Shown here in pieces: positions 1-7,819 of a stretch of 7,824 nucleotides of DNA. The notes below the pieces were generated by a model that saw only the letters and a list, made by a program, of their open reading frames with translations, did no database searches and was not told where the DNA came from. The stretch comes from Naegleria gruberi (taxonomy: Eukaryota): assembly GCA_000004985.1 (NCBI GenBank), contig GG738986.1; one strand, written 5' to 3'. The first letter of the stretch is position 1. The number at the start of each line of letters is the position of its first letter. The translations under genes and the position numbers were made by a program.

Positions 1-722
1 AAACAATCTATTGAGGAATTATAATGCCATTGATTGGGGGAATATTGTTGTTGCATGATCATTCTTCTTTGTATGGTGCTAATTGGACTGTTCATAATCC
101 AAGCACTTGCTGATGCTAATTGAGCTATCCCATATTTAGATATGACTCCTTTCACTCCCAAATCATTCCTGTAAGTATTCACTTCTCTCAATGAATCATT
201 TAATCCAAAATATAACGAACGATAAACCATTGCGCTCATTACTGAAATACCAGCCCCTTTAAACAACCCGAAATACTTTTCCATTCCACTACCCAATTGA
301 CCCACCCTAAATTTCATAATATTATCAAAAGGGAATCTCACAAATTCACAACAAGCACCTGCCAAACCACCACTCACAAACTGATTCACCACAAATCCAT
401 ATCCTCTCTGATCAACTGTTTGAAATGGTAAATAATTCTGCCTCTTTATCAAATCCTTGATGGCAAAATTAAAAACCACAGTATTTGGAAAGAACGATTT
501 GATCATGTTGAGTAAATTTCCTCTCCAAAACAAGAAACAAGCTTGCGGAAACTTGGGTTTTTCTGGGTGATGAAGGAGAATCATGAATCGATCAATTGGT
601 GCTGTTAATGTTCTTCCGATGGCTCGAGAAGCTCCTCCAATCAAGTAATCTGTAAGGAAGAGAAAATTTGTAGCCTTCCTGCTTGTGTTCACAAGTGTTT
701 CTTCTTGTGGTACACGAGACAT
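1..722 (-). CDS. Mitochondrial carrier family protein, ADP/ATP-translocase-like, divergent. N-terminal ~240 aa; the C-terminus runs off the left edge of the window.
   Basis: Manual minus-strand translation from ATG at 722..720 (Dictyostelium-style context aaaaaaaATG) is open to position 1. It reads MSRVPQEETLVNTSRKATNFLFLTDYLIGGASRAIGRTLTAPIDRFMILLHHPEKPKFPQACFLFWRGNLLNMIKSFFPNTVVFNFAIKDLIKRQNYLPFQTVDQRGYGFVVNQFVSGGLAGACCEFVRFPFDNIMKFRVGQLGSGMEKYFGLFKGAGISVMSAMVYRSLYFGLNDSLREVNTYRNDLGVKGVISKYGIAQLASASAWIMNSPISTIQRRMIMQQQYSPNQWHYNSSIDC... It matches ADP/ATP carrier hallmarks: FWRGNL.N.I..FP....NFA.KD, GL.+G.G.SV....VYR..YFG.YD, and ..P..T..RRMIMQ (ANT has RRRMMMQ). It shows the tripartite repeat architecture. 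The ORF track omits it because it has no in-window stop. Confidence 0.8.
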   Translation of the reverse strand, partial: MSRVPQEETLVNTSRKATNFLFLTDYLIGGASRAIGRTLTAPIDRFMILLHHPEKPKFPQACFLFWRGNLLNMIKSFFPNTVVFNFAIKDLIKRQNYLPFQTVDQRGYGFVVNQFVSGGLAGACCEFVRFPFDNIMKFRVGQLGSGMEKYFGLFKGAGISVMSAMVYRSLYFGLNDSLREVNTYRNDLGVKGVISKYGIAQLASASAWIMNSPISTIQRRMIMQQQYSPNQWHYNSSIDC

Positions 723-899
723 TTTTTTAAATAATGGTAATGAGATGGTCAACAATTTGAATTATTCCGTTTTGAATTTCTGTATACTGTCGATGAGTTT
801 CGAATATTGACCTTCCAATGAGTATCTTTGTCCAAACTCAAAAAAATCTTTTATTGCAATAATAACGAATCTATTCAGATTCTCTTTGAATTTGTAAAT

Positions 900-2231
900 T
901 TACATTGAGTCAATATAATAATATCTATAGGAGCGGCCGACAAAGTTAGAAATGGCTCCCTGGATCTCAGGCCATTTCTCTGCAATGTCTGGGTATTGTT
1001 GTACGTATCCATCTTCGAAGAATGTGGTTCCAGAATGGTGGAAGAAGAGTACATGGTGATGCTTTTCTGGTCTGAATTGAATATGAGTGAGTTTACACTC
1101 TCTCTGATCAAGAATATCAGATATTTTTGACAAGCAAAAGTATCTGGCACTATCCAGAGCAGGGCATTCATGAATATAGTGATTAAGGTCAGATTCTGTG
1201 TTACAATCATGACAGAAACTTTTACCCTCACCAAAATTGATGTGGGCATTTGAAGAGTTTCTCCAAATATAATATTTAGATTTAGGAGACAAATGGGATT
1301 TAAGGTAGCTGACGTTGATAGAGTTCCAATCTAGGTTAGGTATGTGATTGGGGTGACTCTCTATCTTGTCAAGCATTAGCCTTAAATGTTGTGAGGTAGT
1401 TAACCTCTTATAGTCAAAGATTATAATATCGTTCTTTGTGAGGATATATTGATTAAAGAGTAGTTTACGGATATCAAAGATTTTAGGTTTCAGAGTTGCA
1501 TTCTTTGCCAATAAATCAACTTTGATATTTTCCTTATCCTTATGAGCTTCAACTTTCTTGAATTCATATTCAAGTTTTCTATCCTTAATGGTTTTAAAGA
1601 AGGCTTTTTTTAGTGGTAGAAAGTTTCCCTTATATCGTTCTTTGAGAACTTCAATTGCCACATTACTATCAGTATGGATTTTAATCTTGGAGTCTCTTGG
1701 GATAACTTTAGCTGCTGTAATAATAGAGCATATTTCAGCTACATTATTTGAATATTGATCATTAATATGGAGGGATAAAGATCTAACTGGAGTGTTCATA
1801 TTGGAGCAATCATAGATATTAATCCCCATTCCAGTCTTTGATTCGAGTCTTGATCCGTCAGTGTGAATATCAAAATTATTTCCTGTTTTGATTTTTTTCA
1901 ACTTGAATTTCATTTCATTTTTCTTAAGTGTGAGGTTGTATTCTTTTAGTACTAGTAGCCATTTCGAATAAATATTGTCTTTCGTTTCCTCACAGTGCTT
2001 GATACCATGTTTGAAAGCTTTCTTGACGAGTAAATTGTTACTGTTAGCAATTAAGGTCATGGTTCTTAGGTTCATTCTTTCAGAAAATTCTACAATAGAT
2101 GGTAGTCCTAATCCACCTTTTTCTAATGGTAAGTGGAATAAGCTGGTTGGTGTTTTCCTGTCCATATATAGTTTTCTTCTAATTGCTCCTCTAATGGCTA
2201 TATCAATTTGAGATGAAAAGAAATATGGCAA
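900..2231 (-). mobile_element. 5'-truncated non-LTR (LINE, L1-like) retrotransposon ORF2 fragment with RT C-terminal thumb, RNase H domain and a C-terminal CCHC zinc knuckle. The 3' UTR presumably extends below 900; its boundary is undetermined.
   Basis: A 443-codon open frame has no internal stop. The RT thumb signature LPLEKGGLGLPS is at aa 34-45 (about 2097..2132). RNase H catalytic motifs are present: IHTDGS (D124), NNVAEICSIITAAK (E166), IHTDSNVAI (D188), VEAHKDKENIKVDLLAKNA (H230/D239), spanning about 1482..1889. The knuckle CHDCNTESDLNHYIHEC (CX2CX7HX4C) is at about 1164..1214. No upstream RT motifs (FADD etc.) are present. The reverse-complement frames upstream of 2231 are full of stops, so the element is 5'-truncated near 2213..2231. 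The track start is a TTG, not ATG. Confidence 0.85.
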
Positions 2232-2926
2232 CTAATACTAGACCTAACAAACGTAAATCTAATTACAATCTTAATCAAATAATTAATGTAATTTGCTACA
2301 AAGATGTTACTAACGAATTTGTTGAACAAATTACAGACCTACTCGGTGACTCTGTAATCATTAGAGTTAATCGATACTGTAATAATATTATTAATGTAAT
2401 TTGCCCTGATGAAACCAGTTATAAAGAGTGTTTCAATCAATTAGTGCAAGGAAGTCATGGAGGAAAATTCATATTAGAATGCTTTCCATCTCCAGCAATC
2501 TTTAATCCTAAACCTTTAGCACTTTCACATACTACTTCCAGTAAAACTACTCACCTTAAAATGCTAGAAAATATTATTAGCAAATATATATTGGNNNNNN
2601 NNNNNNNNNNNNNNNNNNNNNNNNNNNNNNNNNNNNNNNNNNNNATATATAATAATAATAATAATAATAATATCACAAATGCAAATAATAGAATTGATAA
2701 AATTGAAAAAAGTATTATAGATTTAACTCAACAGCTCATGCTCACTAATAACAATATTAATAATATAGTTGAAATACTTAAACAAGCAAATATTATTAGA
2801 CCTAATAATGATAACAAAATGTTAAATAATCCTAATAATAAGATGTTAGAGGATTCTAATAATAGTAATAATAATATGTTAGATGATGAATTAAGTTCAT
2901 CATCTAATCCATCTACTCTACCTTGA
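2213..2926 (+). CDS. Hypothetical Asn-rich protein, interrupted by a 50-N assembly gap. Segments are 2213..2594 and 2645..2926, and the frame relation across the gap is unknowable.
   Basis: Open frame with ATG at 2213 and an A-rich-context ATG at 2225 (aaaagaaatATGg). Codon usage fits the flanking genes. It has an internal IINVIC...IINVIC repeat and Asn homopolymers in the C-terminal half. No domain is recognised. The first 19 nt overlap the LINE fragment's N-terminal end. Confidence 0.4.
   Translation: MKRNMATNTRPNKRKSNYNLNQIINVICYKDVTNEFVEQITDLLGDSVIIRVNRYCNNIINVICPDETSYKECFNQLVQGSHGGKFILECFPSPAIFNPKPLALSHTTSSKTTHLKMLENIISKYILXXXXXXXXXXXXXXXXXIYNNNNNNNITNANNRIDKIEKSIIDLTQQLMLTNNNINNIVEILKQANIIRPNNDNKMLNNPNNKMLEDSNNSNNNMLDDELSSSSNPSTLP
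2595..2644. other. Assembly gap (50 N)
   Basis: Run of 50 n characters. Confidence 0.99.
2651..2671 (+). repeat. (AAT)7 microsatellite encoding an Asn run
   Basis: aataataataataataataat read directly. A similar (ATT)6 run at 3272..3289 encodes N6 on the minus strand. Confidence 0.9.
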
Positions 2927-3460
2927 GTAGAACCACAACAAGTTTAAGGCTAGCGTGCTATAACGTAAATGGTTTATATAAGCACGCAAGCCATTCATCT
3001 TATTAGTTGTTGATTTTTGTTTTGCTATTGTTTTCTTAATAGATGGCTGAGCTTTAATAGGAGCTAATCTTGTAATATCAGCATAACTGACAGTTCTATT
3101 TTTAGGATTACTATCGCATATTTGAACTGTCTCAGTCAAGAAATTTCCACCATTAATTAAATTTCTACTAGTTGGTAGATTTCTAACATTTACTGGATTT
3201 CTAGTAATAAATAGATTTTCATTTTCTGATGGTTGGGTATTGATCAGATTATTATTTACAGGTTTGATGGGATTATTATTATTATTATTCAATAACGGGT
3301 GACCATTACATATATTTACAAGTTGTTGAAGATAGTCACGGAGATTATTGTTTTCCTTTTGGTAGGTTTCAATTGCTCTCTCTAACACAAAAATCCTGTC
3401 AGCAAGCAAATTACTCCCTTCCGTATCCGGAGGATGGTCTTGTTGAGGTATTTTTTTCAT
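2918..3460 (-). CDS. Hypothetical protein with a leucine-zipper-like N-terminus and an Asn-rich region
   Basis: 180-aa ORF with ATG at 3460..3458 and stop at 2920..2918. The N-terminus LLADRIFVLERAIETYQKENNNLRDYLQQLVNI is heptad-like and is followed by an NNNNNN run. Codon usage is consistent with its neighbours. No homology is recognised. Its start lies only 19 bp from the divergent plus-strand ATG at 3480, which lowers confidence in one of the two models. Confidence 0.4.
   Translation of the reverse strand: MKKIPQQDHPPDTEGSNLLADRIFVLERAIETYQKENNNLRDYLQQLVNICNGHPLLNNNNNNPIKPVNNNLINTQPSENENLFITRNPVNVRNLPTSRNLINGGNFLTETVQICDSNPKNRTVSYADITRLAPIKAQPSIKKTIAKQKSTTNKMNGLRAYINHLRYSTLALNLLWFYSR
2948..2992. 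repeat. GC-rich imperfect inverted repeat (hairpin) with a 12-bp stem (11/12 paired) and a 21-nt loop
   Basis: Left arm GGCTAGCGTGCT (2948..2959) against right arm AGCACGCAAGCC (2981..2992), with one A:A mismatch and loop ataacgtaaatggtttatata. It stands out against roughly 70% AT surroundings. It lies at the overlapping 3' ends of the convergent ORFs, inside the C-terminal coding part of the minus ORF. Confidence 0.6.
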
Positions 3461-3479
3461 CGTCGATCAAAACAAAAAA

Positions 3480-4464
3480 ATGCCCTCTAAAAAGGTAAGA
3501 GAATTCCGTACCATGCAGTTACTCATTATTATAATGCCTCCTTTTCTCTCTAACTAACAACAACAACAAAATTTATAAATATTTTACATCATCATTATTT
3601 TCATCATCACAGAGTTCTAATAGTAAGAAAAAGAGTACATCTAAAAGTCAGTCCAAGAGCGAAAAATCTTCTGCTCCGCAACCACAGACTGTCAAACGAT
3701 CAACAACTCTTGAATCACAAATCACTACTCTAAATGATTTTTGGAGAACATTAAACTTTGGCACAAGGAAAAAACTTCTTCATGTTGATGCCTGTTCATT
3801 GCTAAAAAAGACAAAGGAACAATATCAAAGAGTGTGTTCGTGCACTGTTTGTGGTAGAAACAAATCTATTCTTGATAGAGAATTGGATAGACTTTTTACT
3901 GATTACTGCAAAGAACTTGCATATCAGAATCATGTTGATTGTGTATTCAATTTTTGTAGCACCTCCAACTCATCAGACAGATCTAAACTTCGCAACAACT
4001 CACGAAGTCCAAAAACAACTAAGAGAACCGTCATCAGCAATGGAACTGAAATGTTAACCACAACAACCGTAAAGAAAAGTGGTAACGTACGAGTTATTGA
4101 AAAAACTGTAAAATACTATTCTACAACAAAAGTAAATCCAAATGACAAAGCAAGTAGTCCTATTATTGAAGATATCACAGAGGATAATAGAGAAAAGGCT
4201 ATTTCTAAACAGAGTCAAACTAATGGTTCAAACACCGAACCAATAGATTCGAAAAACGGTTCACAACAAAATAATCAGCATTTACCACCACCTCCACCTA
4301 TTCAACCTGAAGATAGTCAAGAAGATAGTGTTCAGTATGACTTTGGAAAGAATCTTTCGATCAGTCGAGAAGGTATCATAACAATCTCCGAGGATTGGAT
4401 AAAGCAAAACGAATCCAACGATATTATCCATTTATTACAAAAATTTGAACATAATATCAAACAC
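3480..4464 (+). CDS. Partial gene with a Ser/Lys-rich N-terminus and a CSCxVCGR motif, possibly Nst1-family-like. Exon 1 is 3480..3494, exon 2 is 3613..4464, and the gene continues into the assembly gap.
   Basis: aaaaaaaATGCCCTCTAAAAAG followed by GTAAGA, then ...tcatcatcacAG|AGT. The exon 2 frame is open from 3613 with no in-frame ATG, GTG or TTG before 3799, so an upstream exon is required. Spliced N-terminus: MPSKK|SSNSKKKSTSKSQSKSEKSS...LNDFWRTLNFGTRKKLLHVDACSLLKKTKEQYQRVCSCTVCGRNKSILDRELDRLFTDYCKELAYQNH. The central motif resembles my recollection of the conserved N-terminal region of fungal stress-response protein Nst1 (CxCxVCGR...EEL..LY..YY.EL). That is recalled, not searched. Confidence 0.6.
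3495..3612 (+). other. Intron (118 bp, GTAAGA...CAG) following a 15-nt first exon
   Basis: Canonical donor gtaaga at 3495 and acceptor cag ending at 3612. Phase 0/0 joins exon 1 to the open exon 2 frame. Its AT content is lower than a typical D. discoideum intron (it contains ccgtaccatgcag and gcctcc). Confidence 0.6.
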
Positions 4465-6761
4465 NNNNNNNNNNNNNNNNNNNNNNNNNNNNNNNNNNNN
4501 NNNNNNNNNNNNNNNNNNNNNNNNNNNNNNNNNNNNNNNNNNNNNNNNNNNNNNNNNNNNNNNNNNNNNNNNNNNNNNNNNNNNNNNNNNNNNNNNNNNN
4601 NNNNNNNNNNNNNNNNNNNNNNNNNNNNNNNNNNNNNNNNNNNNNNNNNNNNNNNNNNNNNNNNNNNNNNNNNNNNNNNNNNNNNNNNNNNNNNNNNNNN
4701 NNNNNNNNNNNNNNNNNNNNNNNNNNNNNNNNNNNNNNNNNNNNNNNNNNNNNNNNNNNNNNNNNNNNNNNNNNNNNNNNNNNNNNNNNNNNNNNNNNNN
4801 NNNNNNNNNNNNNNNNNNNNNNNNNNNNNNNNNNNNNNNNNNNNNNNNNNNNNNNNNNNNNNNNNNNNNNNNNNNNNNNNNNNNNNNNNNNNNNNNNNNN
4901 NNNNNNNNNNNNNNNNNNNNNNNNNNNNNNNNNNNNNNNNNNNNNNNNNNNNNNNNNNNNNNNNNNNNNNNNNNNNNNNNNNNNNNNNNNNNNNNNNNNN
5001 NNNNNNNNNNNNNNNNNNNNNNNNNNNNNNNNNNNNNNNNNNNNNNNNNNNNNNNNNNNNNNNNNNNNNNNNNNNNNNNNNNNNNNNNNNNNNNNNNNNN
5101 NNNNNNNNNNNNNNNNNNNNNNNNNNNNNNNNNNNNNNNNNNNNNNNNNNNNNNNNNNNNNNNNNNNNNNNNNNNNNNNNNNNNNNNNNNNNNNNNNNNN
5201 NNNNNNNNNNNNNNNNNNNNNNNNNNNNNNNNNNNNNNNNNNNNNNNNNNNNNNNNNNNNNNNNNNNNNNNNNNNNNNNNNNNNNNNNNNNNNNNNNNNN
5301 NNNNNNNNNNNNNNNNNNNNNNNNNNNNNNNNNNNNNNNNNNNNNNNNNNNNNNNNNNNNNNNNNNNNNNNNNNNNNNNNNNNNNNNNNNNNNNNNNNNN
5401 NNNNNNNNNNNNNNNNNNNNNNNNNNNNNNNNNNNNNNNNNNNNNNNNNNNNNNNNNNNNNNNNNNNNNNNNNNNNNNNNNNNNNNNNNNNNNNNNNNNN
5501 NNNNNNNNNNNNNNNNNNNNNNNNNNNNNNNNNNNNNNNNNNNNNNNNNNNNNNNNNNNNNNNNNNNNNNNNNNNNNNNNNNNNNNNNNNNNNNNNNNNN
5601 NNNNNNNNNNNNNNNNNNNNNNNNNNNNNNNNNNNNNNNNNNNNNNNNNNNNNNNNNNNNNNNNNNNNNNNNNNNNNNNNNNNNNNNNNNNNNNNNNNNN
5701 NNNNNNNNNNNNNNNNNNNNNNNNNNNNNNNNNNNNNNNNNNNNNNNNNNNNNNNNNNNNNNNNNNNNNNNNNNNNNNNNNNNNNNNNNNNNNNNNNNNN
5801 NNNNNNNNNNNNNNNNNNNNNNNNNNNNNNNNNNNNNNNNNNNNNNNNNNNNNNNNNNNNNNNNNNNNNNNNNNNNNNNNNNNNNNNNNNNNNNNNNNNN
5901 NNNNNNNNNNNNNNNNNNNNNNNNNNNNNNNNNNNNNNNNNNNNNNNNNNNNNNNNNNNNNNNNNNNNNNNNNNNNNNNNNNNNNNNNNNNNNNNNNNNN
6001 NNNNNNNNNNNNNNNNNNNNNNNNNNNNNNNNNNNNNNNNNNNNNNNNNNNNNNNNNNNNNNNNNNNNNNNNNNNNNNNNNNNNNNNNNNNNNNNNNNNN
6101 NNNNNNNNNNNNNNNNNNNNNNNNNNNNNNNNNNNNNNNNNNNNNNNNNNNNNNNNNNNNNNNNNNNNNNNNNNNNNNNNNNNNNNNNNNNNNNNNNNNN
6201 NNNNNNNNNNNNNNNNNNNNNNNNNNNNNNNNNNNNNNNNNNNNNNNNNNNNNNNNNNNNNNNNNNNNNNNNNNNNNNNNNNNNNNNNNNNNNNNNNNNN
6301 NNNNNNNNNNNNNNNNNNNNNNNNNNNNNNNNNNNNNNNNNNNNNNNNNNNNNNNNNNNNNNNNNNNNNNNNNNNNNNNNNNNNNNNNNNNNNNNNNNNN
6401 NNNNNNNNNNNNNNNNNNNNNNNNNNNNNNNNNNNNNNNNNNNNNNNNNNNNNNNNNNNNNNNNNNNNNNNNNNNNNNNNNNNNNNNNNNNNNNNNNNNN
6501 NNNNNNNNNNNNNNNNNNNNNNNNNNNNNNNNNNNNNNNNNNNNNNNNNNNNNNNNNNNNNNNNNNNNNNNNNNNNNNNNNNNNNNNNNNNNNNNNNNNN
6601 NNNNNNNNNNNNNNNNNNNNNNNNNNNNNNNNNNNNNNNNNNNNNNNNNNNNNNNNNNNNNNNNNNNNNNNNNNNNNNNNNNNNNNNNNNNNNNNNNNNN
6701 NNNNNNNNNNNNNNNNNNNNNNNNNNNNNNNNNNNNNNNNNNNNNNNNNNNNNNNNNNNNN
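4465..6761. other. Assembly gap (2297 N)
   Basis: Continuous n run. The long ORFs in the track spanning this interval are poly-X artefacts. Confidence 0.99.
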
Positions 6762-6839: not shown

Positions 6840-7819
6840 ATGGCCATTTCTTTCTTTTCAGTAACTTCAATTCTATCTGTCTTTTTGACAAAATACTTGA
6901 TGGATATGGGTGAATATTCATTTCATTTTCCATTAACTATGGCTTGGTTTCATTTGATTGTCTCATTGTTGTGTATTATTTGTACTTATAATTTAAATAG
7001 GTTGGTAATTGATTTATTCAAAGGTTGAAAAAAACTAATCATTTAATTAGAACTTGTTTTAGTTTCTTACCAGATTTTGAATTTAAATTTGATACAGCAG
7101 TACAAATAGCTCCTGTATCATTGTGTTATGTTGGAATGGTTACTTTTAATAATTTGTGTTTGGATTATGCAGATATTCACACCTACCACACTGCAAGAAG
7201 TATTAGTATTTGTTTCACGGTGATTTTCACATCAGTTTTATTGGGAGAAAAAGTTCAGAAGAGAATTATTGGAGCATGTTTAATGATTGCTATTGGATAT
7301 TTCATGACTGGATTTGAAGAATTACAACTTTCTAAAATGCAGTCGATTGGATTTGCTTTTGGATTGATGTCCAGTTGCTTTATGGCACTTTATTCAATTT
7401 ATTTGAAGAAATTAATGTCCTCCTCACACAGAAATCATTGGATTATTCTAATTTATAACGTTGTTTGTGCCATTTTGTTTTTATTCCCTGTTTGCTATTT
7501 TACAGGAGAATTTGAAAAGGCAATTTCTGTTAATTATTTATTTGAACCAAAGTTTTTAGCAATTCTCACAACAACAGCCCTAATAGCATACGTTGTAAAT
7601 ATTTCTAATTTCATGTTAATTAGTTATACCTCTCCATTGACTACTTCTGTCACTATTTCAATGAAATCTGTTGTGGAATCATTTTTATCATTTGCAGTTC
7701 ACAATACTCATGTTTCTACTTATGGATTATTGTCTTCTGCATTTACAGTAGTTGGAACCTATCTCTATTCATACTTTAAAGTGAAAGATAAGAGAGAATT
7801 TGAAGGATTAGTAGATTAG
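6840..7819 (+). CDS. Nucleotide-sugar transporter, SLC35C / GDP-fucose transporter-like (TPT/DMT superfamily). Exon 1 is 6840..7000, exon 2 starts at 7051 or 7063 and ends at 7819. About 305-309 aa.
   Basis: Exon 1: MAISFFSVTSILSVFLTKYLMDMGEYSFHFPLTMAWFHLIVSLLCIICTYNLN. Exon 2: ...FLPDFEFKFDTAVQIAPVSLCYVGMVTFNNLCLDYADIHTYHTARSISICFTVIFTSVLLGEKVQKRIIGACLMIAIGYF... ISYTSPLTTSVTISMKSV... It aligns with recalled human SLC35C1 ([54 protein letters not shown]...LTCGIIIGGF; FTSPLTHNVSGTAKA). The protein is multi-pass hydrophobic and the stop tag is at 7817..7819. The two ORF-track frames (6840 and 7025) overlap, which requires an intron or a frameshift. Confidence 0.85.
7001..7062 (+). other. Putative short intron of the SLC35C-like gene. 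Donor gttggt at 7001; acceptor AG at 7049-7050 (50-bp intron) or 7061-7062 (62-bp intron).
   Basis: Only a GT at 7001 (exon 1 ends in phase 2, ..aat ag) is phase-compatible with exon 2 starting at 7051 (ag+a gives R) or 7063 (ag+t gives S). Both restore an alignment to the SLC35C1 loop region. The gtaatt at 7005 is phase-incompatible with any nearby AG. The GTTGGT donor is weak, so a sequencing frameshift is the alternative. Confidence 0.45.

Follow-up and report, generated by a model that had tools for sequence, protein, structure and literature searches.

How can a region between two divergent genes of Naegleria gruberi come to carry a long open frame that looks like the end of a LINE ORF2, and where does the element behind this frame begin and end? 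The question is raised by a stretch of 7,824 nt (contig GG738986.1, assembly GCA_000004985.1), which was analysed at its full length and is called the window here. A preliminary description, made from the letters alone, regarded the frame as a 5′-truncated L1-like insertion next to an Asn-rich host gene. Our answer, which we hold to be highly probable, is that 848..3472 is a single minus-strand copy of a heterolobosean APE-type LINE, which keeps both of its native ends and is rearranged in its interior. The homology, the order of the blocks, the junctions and the target-site duplication are the demonstrated parts of this reading.

An ORF2 end annotated as a protein

The minus-strand frame at 900..2231 starts with TTG and encodes 443 aa plus stop in 1332 nt, and its product is 100% identical to NAEGRDRAFT_82331 of N. 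gruberi. The open frame with its thumb, RNase H, CX2CX7HX4C knuckle and 87-aa tail, as read from the letters alone, is confirmed by Pfam, alignments and AlphaFold/Foldseek. Its parts are as follows.

900..2210, minus: block C, the C-terminal 436 codons of ORF2 plus stop (Pfam, homology to L001 and L003, fold matches)
~1904..2210, minus: thumb, within block C
1497..1871, minus: RNase H, within block C
1164..1214, minus: CCHC knuckle, within block C
903..1163, minus: 87-aa tail, within block C
2211..2231, minus: first 7 codons of the listed ORF (TTG..); homology to L001 and L003 stops at 2210/2211

The Pfam domain RNase_H (PF00075) covers aa 121-245 (E=1.4e-11) and is the only family that matched the RNase H of this frame at E<=1. 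Residues D125, E166, D188, H230 and D239 do not vary across the aligned relatives. The AlphaFold model of the whole frame has a mean pLDDT of 78, which rises above 90 over the RNase H, and in Foldseek the RNase H model superposes on E. coli RNase HI (E ~1e-6, TM 0.7-0.8, target-normalised), its best fold matches being bacterial RNase HI. Both the D-E-D-(H)-D residues and the RNase H fold of a type 1 enzyme are found in this product. Upstream of it, aa 8 to ~100 align directly after the RVT_1 domain of full-length relatives (from aa 775 onward in P0011) and correspond to the thumb. The knuckle consists of C340, C343, H351 and C356, which are kept in all the relatives aligned, and 87 aa lie C-terminal to it. 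In intact members of the family, the RNase H would remove the RNA template and the CCHC domain would bind nucleic acid.

What, then, are the first seven codons? The segment 2211..2231 is the antisense reading of the start of an inverted block (block B below) and is not element coding in the ORF2 frame. The 443-codon frame is block C plus seven chance codons read across a junction. NAEGRDRAFT_82331 is the dead, non-autonomous remnant of a LINE copy young enough for its frame to be still open; at least this one predicted protein of N. gruberi is a LINE fragment.

A multicopy family and the age of the copy

That the frame is the C-terminal fragment of ORF2 from a multicopy family, as had been proposed, is borne out by a copy elsewhere, by full-length relatives and by N. 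gruberi paralogues. The copy lies in L001, a Logan contig which shares only 841..2210 of the window, with 90.8% nucleotide identity, and whose flanks are unrelated. A profile built from the 900..2231 frame and its close relatives found 21 proteins at E<=1e-30 in 1.8 billion representatives. P0011, P0012, P0013, P0018 and P0038, drawn from these 21 plus weaker matches, have RVT_1 and RNase_H, and all of them span the thumb/RNase H region of the profile. It is the C-terminal ~400 aa of the full-length relatives (thumb, RNase H, knuckle and tail) that match the profile, while an N-terminal APE (Exo_endo_phos and Exo_endo_phos_2) is found in P0011, P0008 and P0009. Hosts of the relatives include N. 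fowleri (clusters of 30 and 14 members) and Willaertia magna (one), and N. gruberi itself has at least three further annotated paralogues, P0005, P0006 and P0007.

The hallmarks of an APE-type LINE are present in this family. The RT domain lies directly upstream of the queried segment in the relatives, its core being deleted in the window; the APE is N-terminal in the relatives, and only its first ~20 codons are kept in the window; and the copies are dispersed, with unrelated flanks in L001 and with duplications of 9, 17, 17 and 8-9 nt. The family is a heterolobosean, multicopy LINE family of the order APE-RT-RNase H-CCHC. In the literature on Naegleria LINEs, Proto1 and Ambal, no description of the Naegleria family was found. 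Ambal, listed as protist-only (PMC4438587), could not be linked to it. Naegleria genomes are described as transposon-poor, with 0.28% in a RepeatMasker-based annotation (bioRxiv 10.64898/2026.06.24.734286).

Between the window copy and L001, dN/dS is 0.087 with a dS of 0.40. Because of this low ratio, nearly all of the divergence is supposed to have accumulated under selection in active source lineages, and both insertions are young. The earlier suggestion of a recent insertion is therefore probably right: the frames are open, and the low ratio comes from comparison with a copy of 91% identity that sits elsewhere, at an unrelated locus. An open frame, a dN/dS of 0.087 and annotation as a protein are also what one would expect if NAEGRDRAFT_82331 were a domesticated host gene, with RNase H and zinc knuckle kept under selection. 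However, the L001 copy sits at an unrelated locus with its own 17-nt duplication, the low dN/dS reflects active sources, and no ATG begins the element-derived part, the gene model starting at an internal Met. Domestication is thus extremely unlikely, and the frame is better taken as the remnant described above.

Two further observations concern members of this family. In the gene models of P0005, P0006 and P0007, the region of thumb, RNase H and CCHC follows immediately on the APE and the start of the RT. The RT core that is skipped corresponds to aa 468-778 of P0011 in P0006 and the near-identical P0005, and to aa 466-810 in P0007, and the 5′ limit of the skip is almost the same in both paralogue lineages, though they are only 54% identical. 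These models could be real RT-less derivatives, or a masked repeat could have been skipped as an intron. In L001, a second thumb-region fragment (7163..7218; 79% identity over 67 aligned nt, 10 nt being deleted internally) lies on the opposite strand, 2 kb downstream of the main copy.

An inverted interior

If the element does not simply stop at 2210, where is the rest of it? The best guide is L003, a 5.3-kb contig that contains a near-complete relative with an ORF1 of at least 523 aa followed by ORF2 (P0011). Comparison of the window with L003 by tblastx and blastp gave three colinear blocks, A, B and C; the rows below complete them.

2994..3472, minus: block A, a 12-nt 5′ leader (3472..3461) and the N-terminal ~155 codons of ORF1 (3460..2996)
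2211..2997, plus: block B, inverted, with the remainder of ORF1 and the ORF2 start
2211..2217, plus: AGATGAA, with its reverse complement TTCATCT at 2994..3000, each occurring once in the window

Block A matches aa 5-163 of the L003 ORF1 (blastp E 2e-7). Block B is colinear with L003 478..1640 on the opposite strand (E 2e-15; tblastx, blastp) and contains ORF1 from the residue matching L003 aa 160 to the stop (2213..2926), a short spacer and the ORF2 start. The latter comprises the first ~20 codons, TSLRLACYNVNGLYKHASHS, at 2938..2997, an APE N-terminus which also matches L002/P0009, P0011 and P0188. Block C, from 2210 to 848 on the minus strand, is colinear with L003 3927..5278, and its coding part with L003 3927..5222. 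Absent between B and C is L003 ~1641..3926, ~2.3 kb that hold most of the APE and the RT core. Block A ends with ..KSTTNK-M and block B starts with MKRN, where L003 reads ...KKNN-MKRN, and blocks A and B joined together give one open ORF1. From this join and the colinearity with L003, it follows that the ORFs 2213..2926 and 2918..3460 are pieces of a LINE ORF1, with block B inverted. Judged by protein comparison, the minus ORF 2918..3460 encodes the N-terminal portion of this ORF1. The assignment of the ORF1 blocks rests on 23-28% protein identity plus colinearity, as the full-length copies available for comparison were all more distant than a member of the same subfamily (>80% nt) would be. 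Two more ORFs of the scaffold, 180 and 237 codons long, are thus LINE fragments, and the gene-like look of the region is misleading.

These blocks bear directly on the preliminary description. It placed a 5′ truncation at about 2213..2231; the limit is close to the true one (2210/2211), while the truncation is not, the site being a junction of an internal rearrangement. Indeed, the ORF2-frame homology stops at 2210/2211 and the plus ORF starts at 2213, just as a simple 5′-truncated L1-like insertion would have it, abutting a host Asn-rich gene and filling the promoter region up to the carrier gene. But the plus ORF is colinear with a LINE ORF1 and then runs into an APE N-terminus, so what was taken for a host gene is the inverted ORF1 and ORF2 start of the same LINE. 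Moreover, an ORF1 N-terminus and a matching duplication follow further on, at 2994..3481. A simple truncated insertion is therefore very unlikely. The copy has its 5′ end, with the ORF1 N-terminus and the 12-nt leader, at 3472, where the 9-nt duplication ties it to the 3′ end.

How was the block inverted? AGATGAA and TTCATCT form a 7-nt inverted pair exactly at both ends of the inverted block, and block B itself natively ends with TTCA (2994..2997), which makes a 4-nt junctional microhomology. Inversion and deletion may have occurred at the DNA level, by staggered breaks or by microhomology-mediated template switching. Twin priming was considered as a cause of the inversion and rejected: it would put the inverted part beside the upstream flank, while block A, in direct orientation, lies outside.

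Could the inversion and the deletion instead be artefacts of assembly, with a real insertion that is in truth intact or simply truncated? The scaffold is small (7.8 kb) and repeat-rich, repeats are prone to misassembly, and one of its two N gaps falls in block B. However, the two junctions, each on an assembly contig of its own (1..2594 and 2645..~4460), call for the same inversion and are precise to the base, with short microhomology, and the unique flanks are tied by the target-site duplication. An artefact is accordingly improbable, if somewhat less so than a simple truncation, and we keep to a copy rearranged in the genome.

Several details of block B are to be noted. The 50-N gap at 2595..2644 lies within it, at a place for which L003 (852..1414) predicts ~560 nt of ORF1, and 50 nt is therefore probably an underestimate of the true gap. 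The window has CTA at 2950..2952, where L003 has the initiator ATG of ORF2, and in the ~30 nt that separate the ORF1 stop (2924..2926) from the conserved motif ACYNVNGL no ATG was seen in the ORF2 frame. A 12-bp perfect inverted repeat, TTAGATGATGAA/TTCATCATCTAA, is found at 2879..2907, close to where ORF1 ends and just ahead of the ORF1/ORF2 junction.

Ends of the element and its target site

The evidence that ties the blocks into one insertion event comes from the outer ends.

839..847: left copy of the duplicated 9-nt target site, CAAAAAAAT (on the element strand, ATTTTTTTG), an exact 9-mer shared with 3473..3481
848..899, minus: element 3′ UTR, where homology to L001 and L003 ends
867..882, minus: hairpin of the conserved 22-nt block, found at 5204..5219 in L001 and at ~5240..5255 in L003
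3473..3481: right copy of the duplication, overlapping the AT of the NST1-like ATG

The 9-mer CAAAAAAAT is the longest word common to both flanks and abuts the 3′ end on one side and the 12-nt leader on the other exactly, though it is A-rich and of low complexity. Since the duplication stands at both ends, blocks A and C belong to one insertion event. AATAAA is present at 850..855 on the minus strand, as had been described, and the element ends ...AATAAAAG, without poly(A). The preliminary description placed the 3′ end within about 180 bp upstream of the carrier ATG and pointed to an A-run next to that ATG. This A7 (T7 on the plus strand) does lie at 722..728; as a remnant of a poly(A) tail it was rejected, element homology ending at 848 and the duplication at 839.

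The other copies agree with these ends. The L001 copy is a plain 5′ truncation with a perfect 17-nt duplication, ATTTTTTAGTGCTAAAT, at 3659..3675 and 5239..5255; from this duplication it follows that the element proper ends ...AATAAAAG and that the T-run belongs to the target. In N. fowleri, L004 holds a full-length copy with a 17-nt duplication, ATTTTTTTTTGATATTA, at 2371..2387 and 7980..7996, and L006 has an 8-9-nt duplication, (T)ATTTTTTC, at 5369..5377 and 10612..10620. All four duplications begin with ATTTTTT, the A preceding a run of six to nine Ts, and this start points to a preference of the family for such target sites. None of the four copies has poly(A): AATAAA and 0-8 nt are directly followed by the target-site duplication. 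At the other end, the leader is 12 nt long in the window copy and 13-19 nt in L004 and L006. The copy in the window would have been inserted by target-primed reverse transcription into such an A-then-T-run site, with duplication of 9 nt.

The 3′ UTR has one more feature in common among copies. A hairpin, GAATCT-GAAT-AGATTC with a 6-bp stem (867..882, minus), belongs to a 22-nt block, AAGAGAATCTGAATAGATTCGT, that is unchanged in three copies with only ~45-50% identity between their ORF2 proteins, and it may be a recognition element for the reverse transcriptase. At the corresponding position ahead of AATAAA, L004 carries a 6-bp hairpin of different sequence (AGCACC/GGTGCT).

A shared preference for T-runs makes it conceivable that LINE insertions cluster, and then the blocks might be two or three independent fragments inserted beside or into each other. 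Target-primed insertion, however, does not yield 5′ parts without a 3′ end, as A and B are; the codon at which block A stops is the very one at which block B starts; and neither internal duplications nor 3′ ends are found at the junctions. There is very little probability in such a series of events, and a single rearranged insertion accounts for the blocks.

Which LINE clade?

The frame had been assigned to the L1 clade. As far as sequence features can tell, L1-clade membership is not supported, because poly(A) and an L1-type ORF1 domain are missing, the RNase H is of the canonical His type, and the RT scores higher against R2 than against L1. Elements of the L1 clade have a 3′ poly(A) tail, which is absent from the copies of the Naegleria family, and L1-type ORF1p domains, which Pfam does not find in its ORF1: L003 ORF1 and window blocks A and B gave no Pfam family at E<=0.1 beyond sub-threshold noise. 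A Cys-His knuckle C-terminal to the RT, on the other hand, is common to both. In plant L1 elements the RNase H is the most C-terminal domain, whereas in the Naegleria family the knuckle comes after it. The RNase H of the plant L1 branch is archaeal-like, with Arg in place of the conserved His (PMC4640811), while the Naegleria family keeps the His (H230 is invariant).

The RT and C-terminal domain of the family match R2 at least as well as L1: the RT of P0011 scores 66.8 bits with R2Bm, compared with 38.2 bits for human L1 ORF2p, which is a proxy score and not a phylogeny. In R2 (solved structures 8gh6, 8ibw, 9dou), in turn, the endonuclease is restriction-like and C-terminal, APE and RNase H are missing, and the target is rDNA, in contrast to the Naegleria family with its N-terminal APE and dispersed insertions. 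[quoted passage not shown] Its order of APE, RT and RNase H and its canonical RNase H are shared by the Naegleria family, which by this architecture appears closest to the I group. The family differs from that group by its two ORFs, by the CCHC knuckle and the 87-aa tail that follow the RNase H, by a leader of 12-19 nt, by the lack of poly(A) and by its A-then-T-run target-site duplications.

The preliminary description also viewed the insertion against dictyostelid elements that target tRNA genes. Dictyostelid TRE is, likewise, a protist APE-type LINE near genes, but it inserts in tRNA flanks, while the Naegleria family uses A/T-run sites in another host. It was rightly stated that no tRNA gene is nearby, as ARAGORN found none in the window, in which there is no Rfam match either. 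The dictyostelid frame has to be given up, the host being Naegleria gruberi. A scan for bacterial promoters and terminators gave 20 against 16.4 expected, without enrichment, and is irrelevant for a eukaryotic host.

Might these elements form a lineage of their own? The order RT-RNase H-CCHC, the 12-19-nt leader, the lack of poly(A) together with the 3′ hairpin, and the A-then-T6-9 duplications are the reasons for which we tentatively raise the idea of an undescribed, distinct APE-type lineage with an unusual mode of integration, whose copy in the window severed the NST1-like gene from its upstream region; taken as a whole, this idea is doubtful. The short leader implies an internal promoter, and the A-then-T6-9 starts of the duplications suggest priming on an A-rich nicked strand. 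The ATTTTTT starts, the missing poly(A) and the 3′ hairpin are testable hints on how reverse transcription is primed in a protist LINE that has received little study. All this is ordinary transposon biology, by which current understanding is not overturned.

The host genes at the insertion site

The divergent intergenic location that had been noticed is real, with a carrier gene on one side and an NST1-like gene, not the Asn-rich ORF, as the plus-strand neighbour from 3480.

1..722, minus: mitochondrial carrier gene (ATG 722..720; Pfam Mito_carr E=3e-15)
723..838: native upstream region of the carrier gene
3480..4459, plus: NST1-like gene (Pfam NST1 E=5e-15, from residue 5 of exon 2)
3480..3494, plus: predicted NST1-like exon 1, ATGCCCTCTAAAAAG
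3495..3612, plus: predicted NST1-like intron, GTAAGA..CAG
from 3613 into the assembly gap, plus: NST1-like exon 2

The frame of the NST1-like gene is open from ~3535 and lacks an in-frame ATG ahead of its conserved part, and the only start nearby is ATGCCCTCTAAAAAG|GTAAGA at 3480, from which the splice model of this gene is predicted. If the element and one copy of the duplication are removed, the site reads ...CCAAACTCAAAAAAATGCCC..., with ~124 nt between the two start codons; the LINE has therefore split a compact bidirectional promoter. Insertion would have taken place at -1 of the NST1-like ATG, in the former ~124-nt divergent intergenic region shared with the carrier gene, and an empty allele is predicted to read ...CCAAACTCAAAAAAATGCCCTCTAAAAAGGTAAGA..., with the flanks joined as CAAAAAAAT-GCCC. 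Of the native upstream sequence, 116 nt remain with the carrier gene, together with the left copy of the duplication, and none with the NST1-like gene. If the NST1-like gene is truly severed from its upstream region, its transcription would start inside the 5′ end of the LINE, in antisense. A young LINE at -1 of a start codon, in a bidirectional promoter of ~124 nt, is a natural promoter-disruption experiment.

Further along the scaffold, a second run of N (~4460..6760, 2.3 kb) interrupts the NST1-like gene. Near the scaffold end there is a third host gene, the ORF 7025..7819 (+), which encodes a domain of the TPT/EamA/UAA nucleotide-sugar-transporter type (Pfam TPT E 5e-20).
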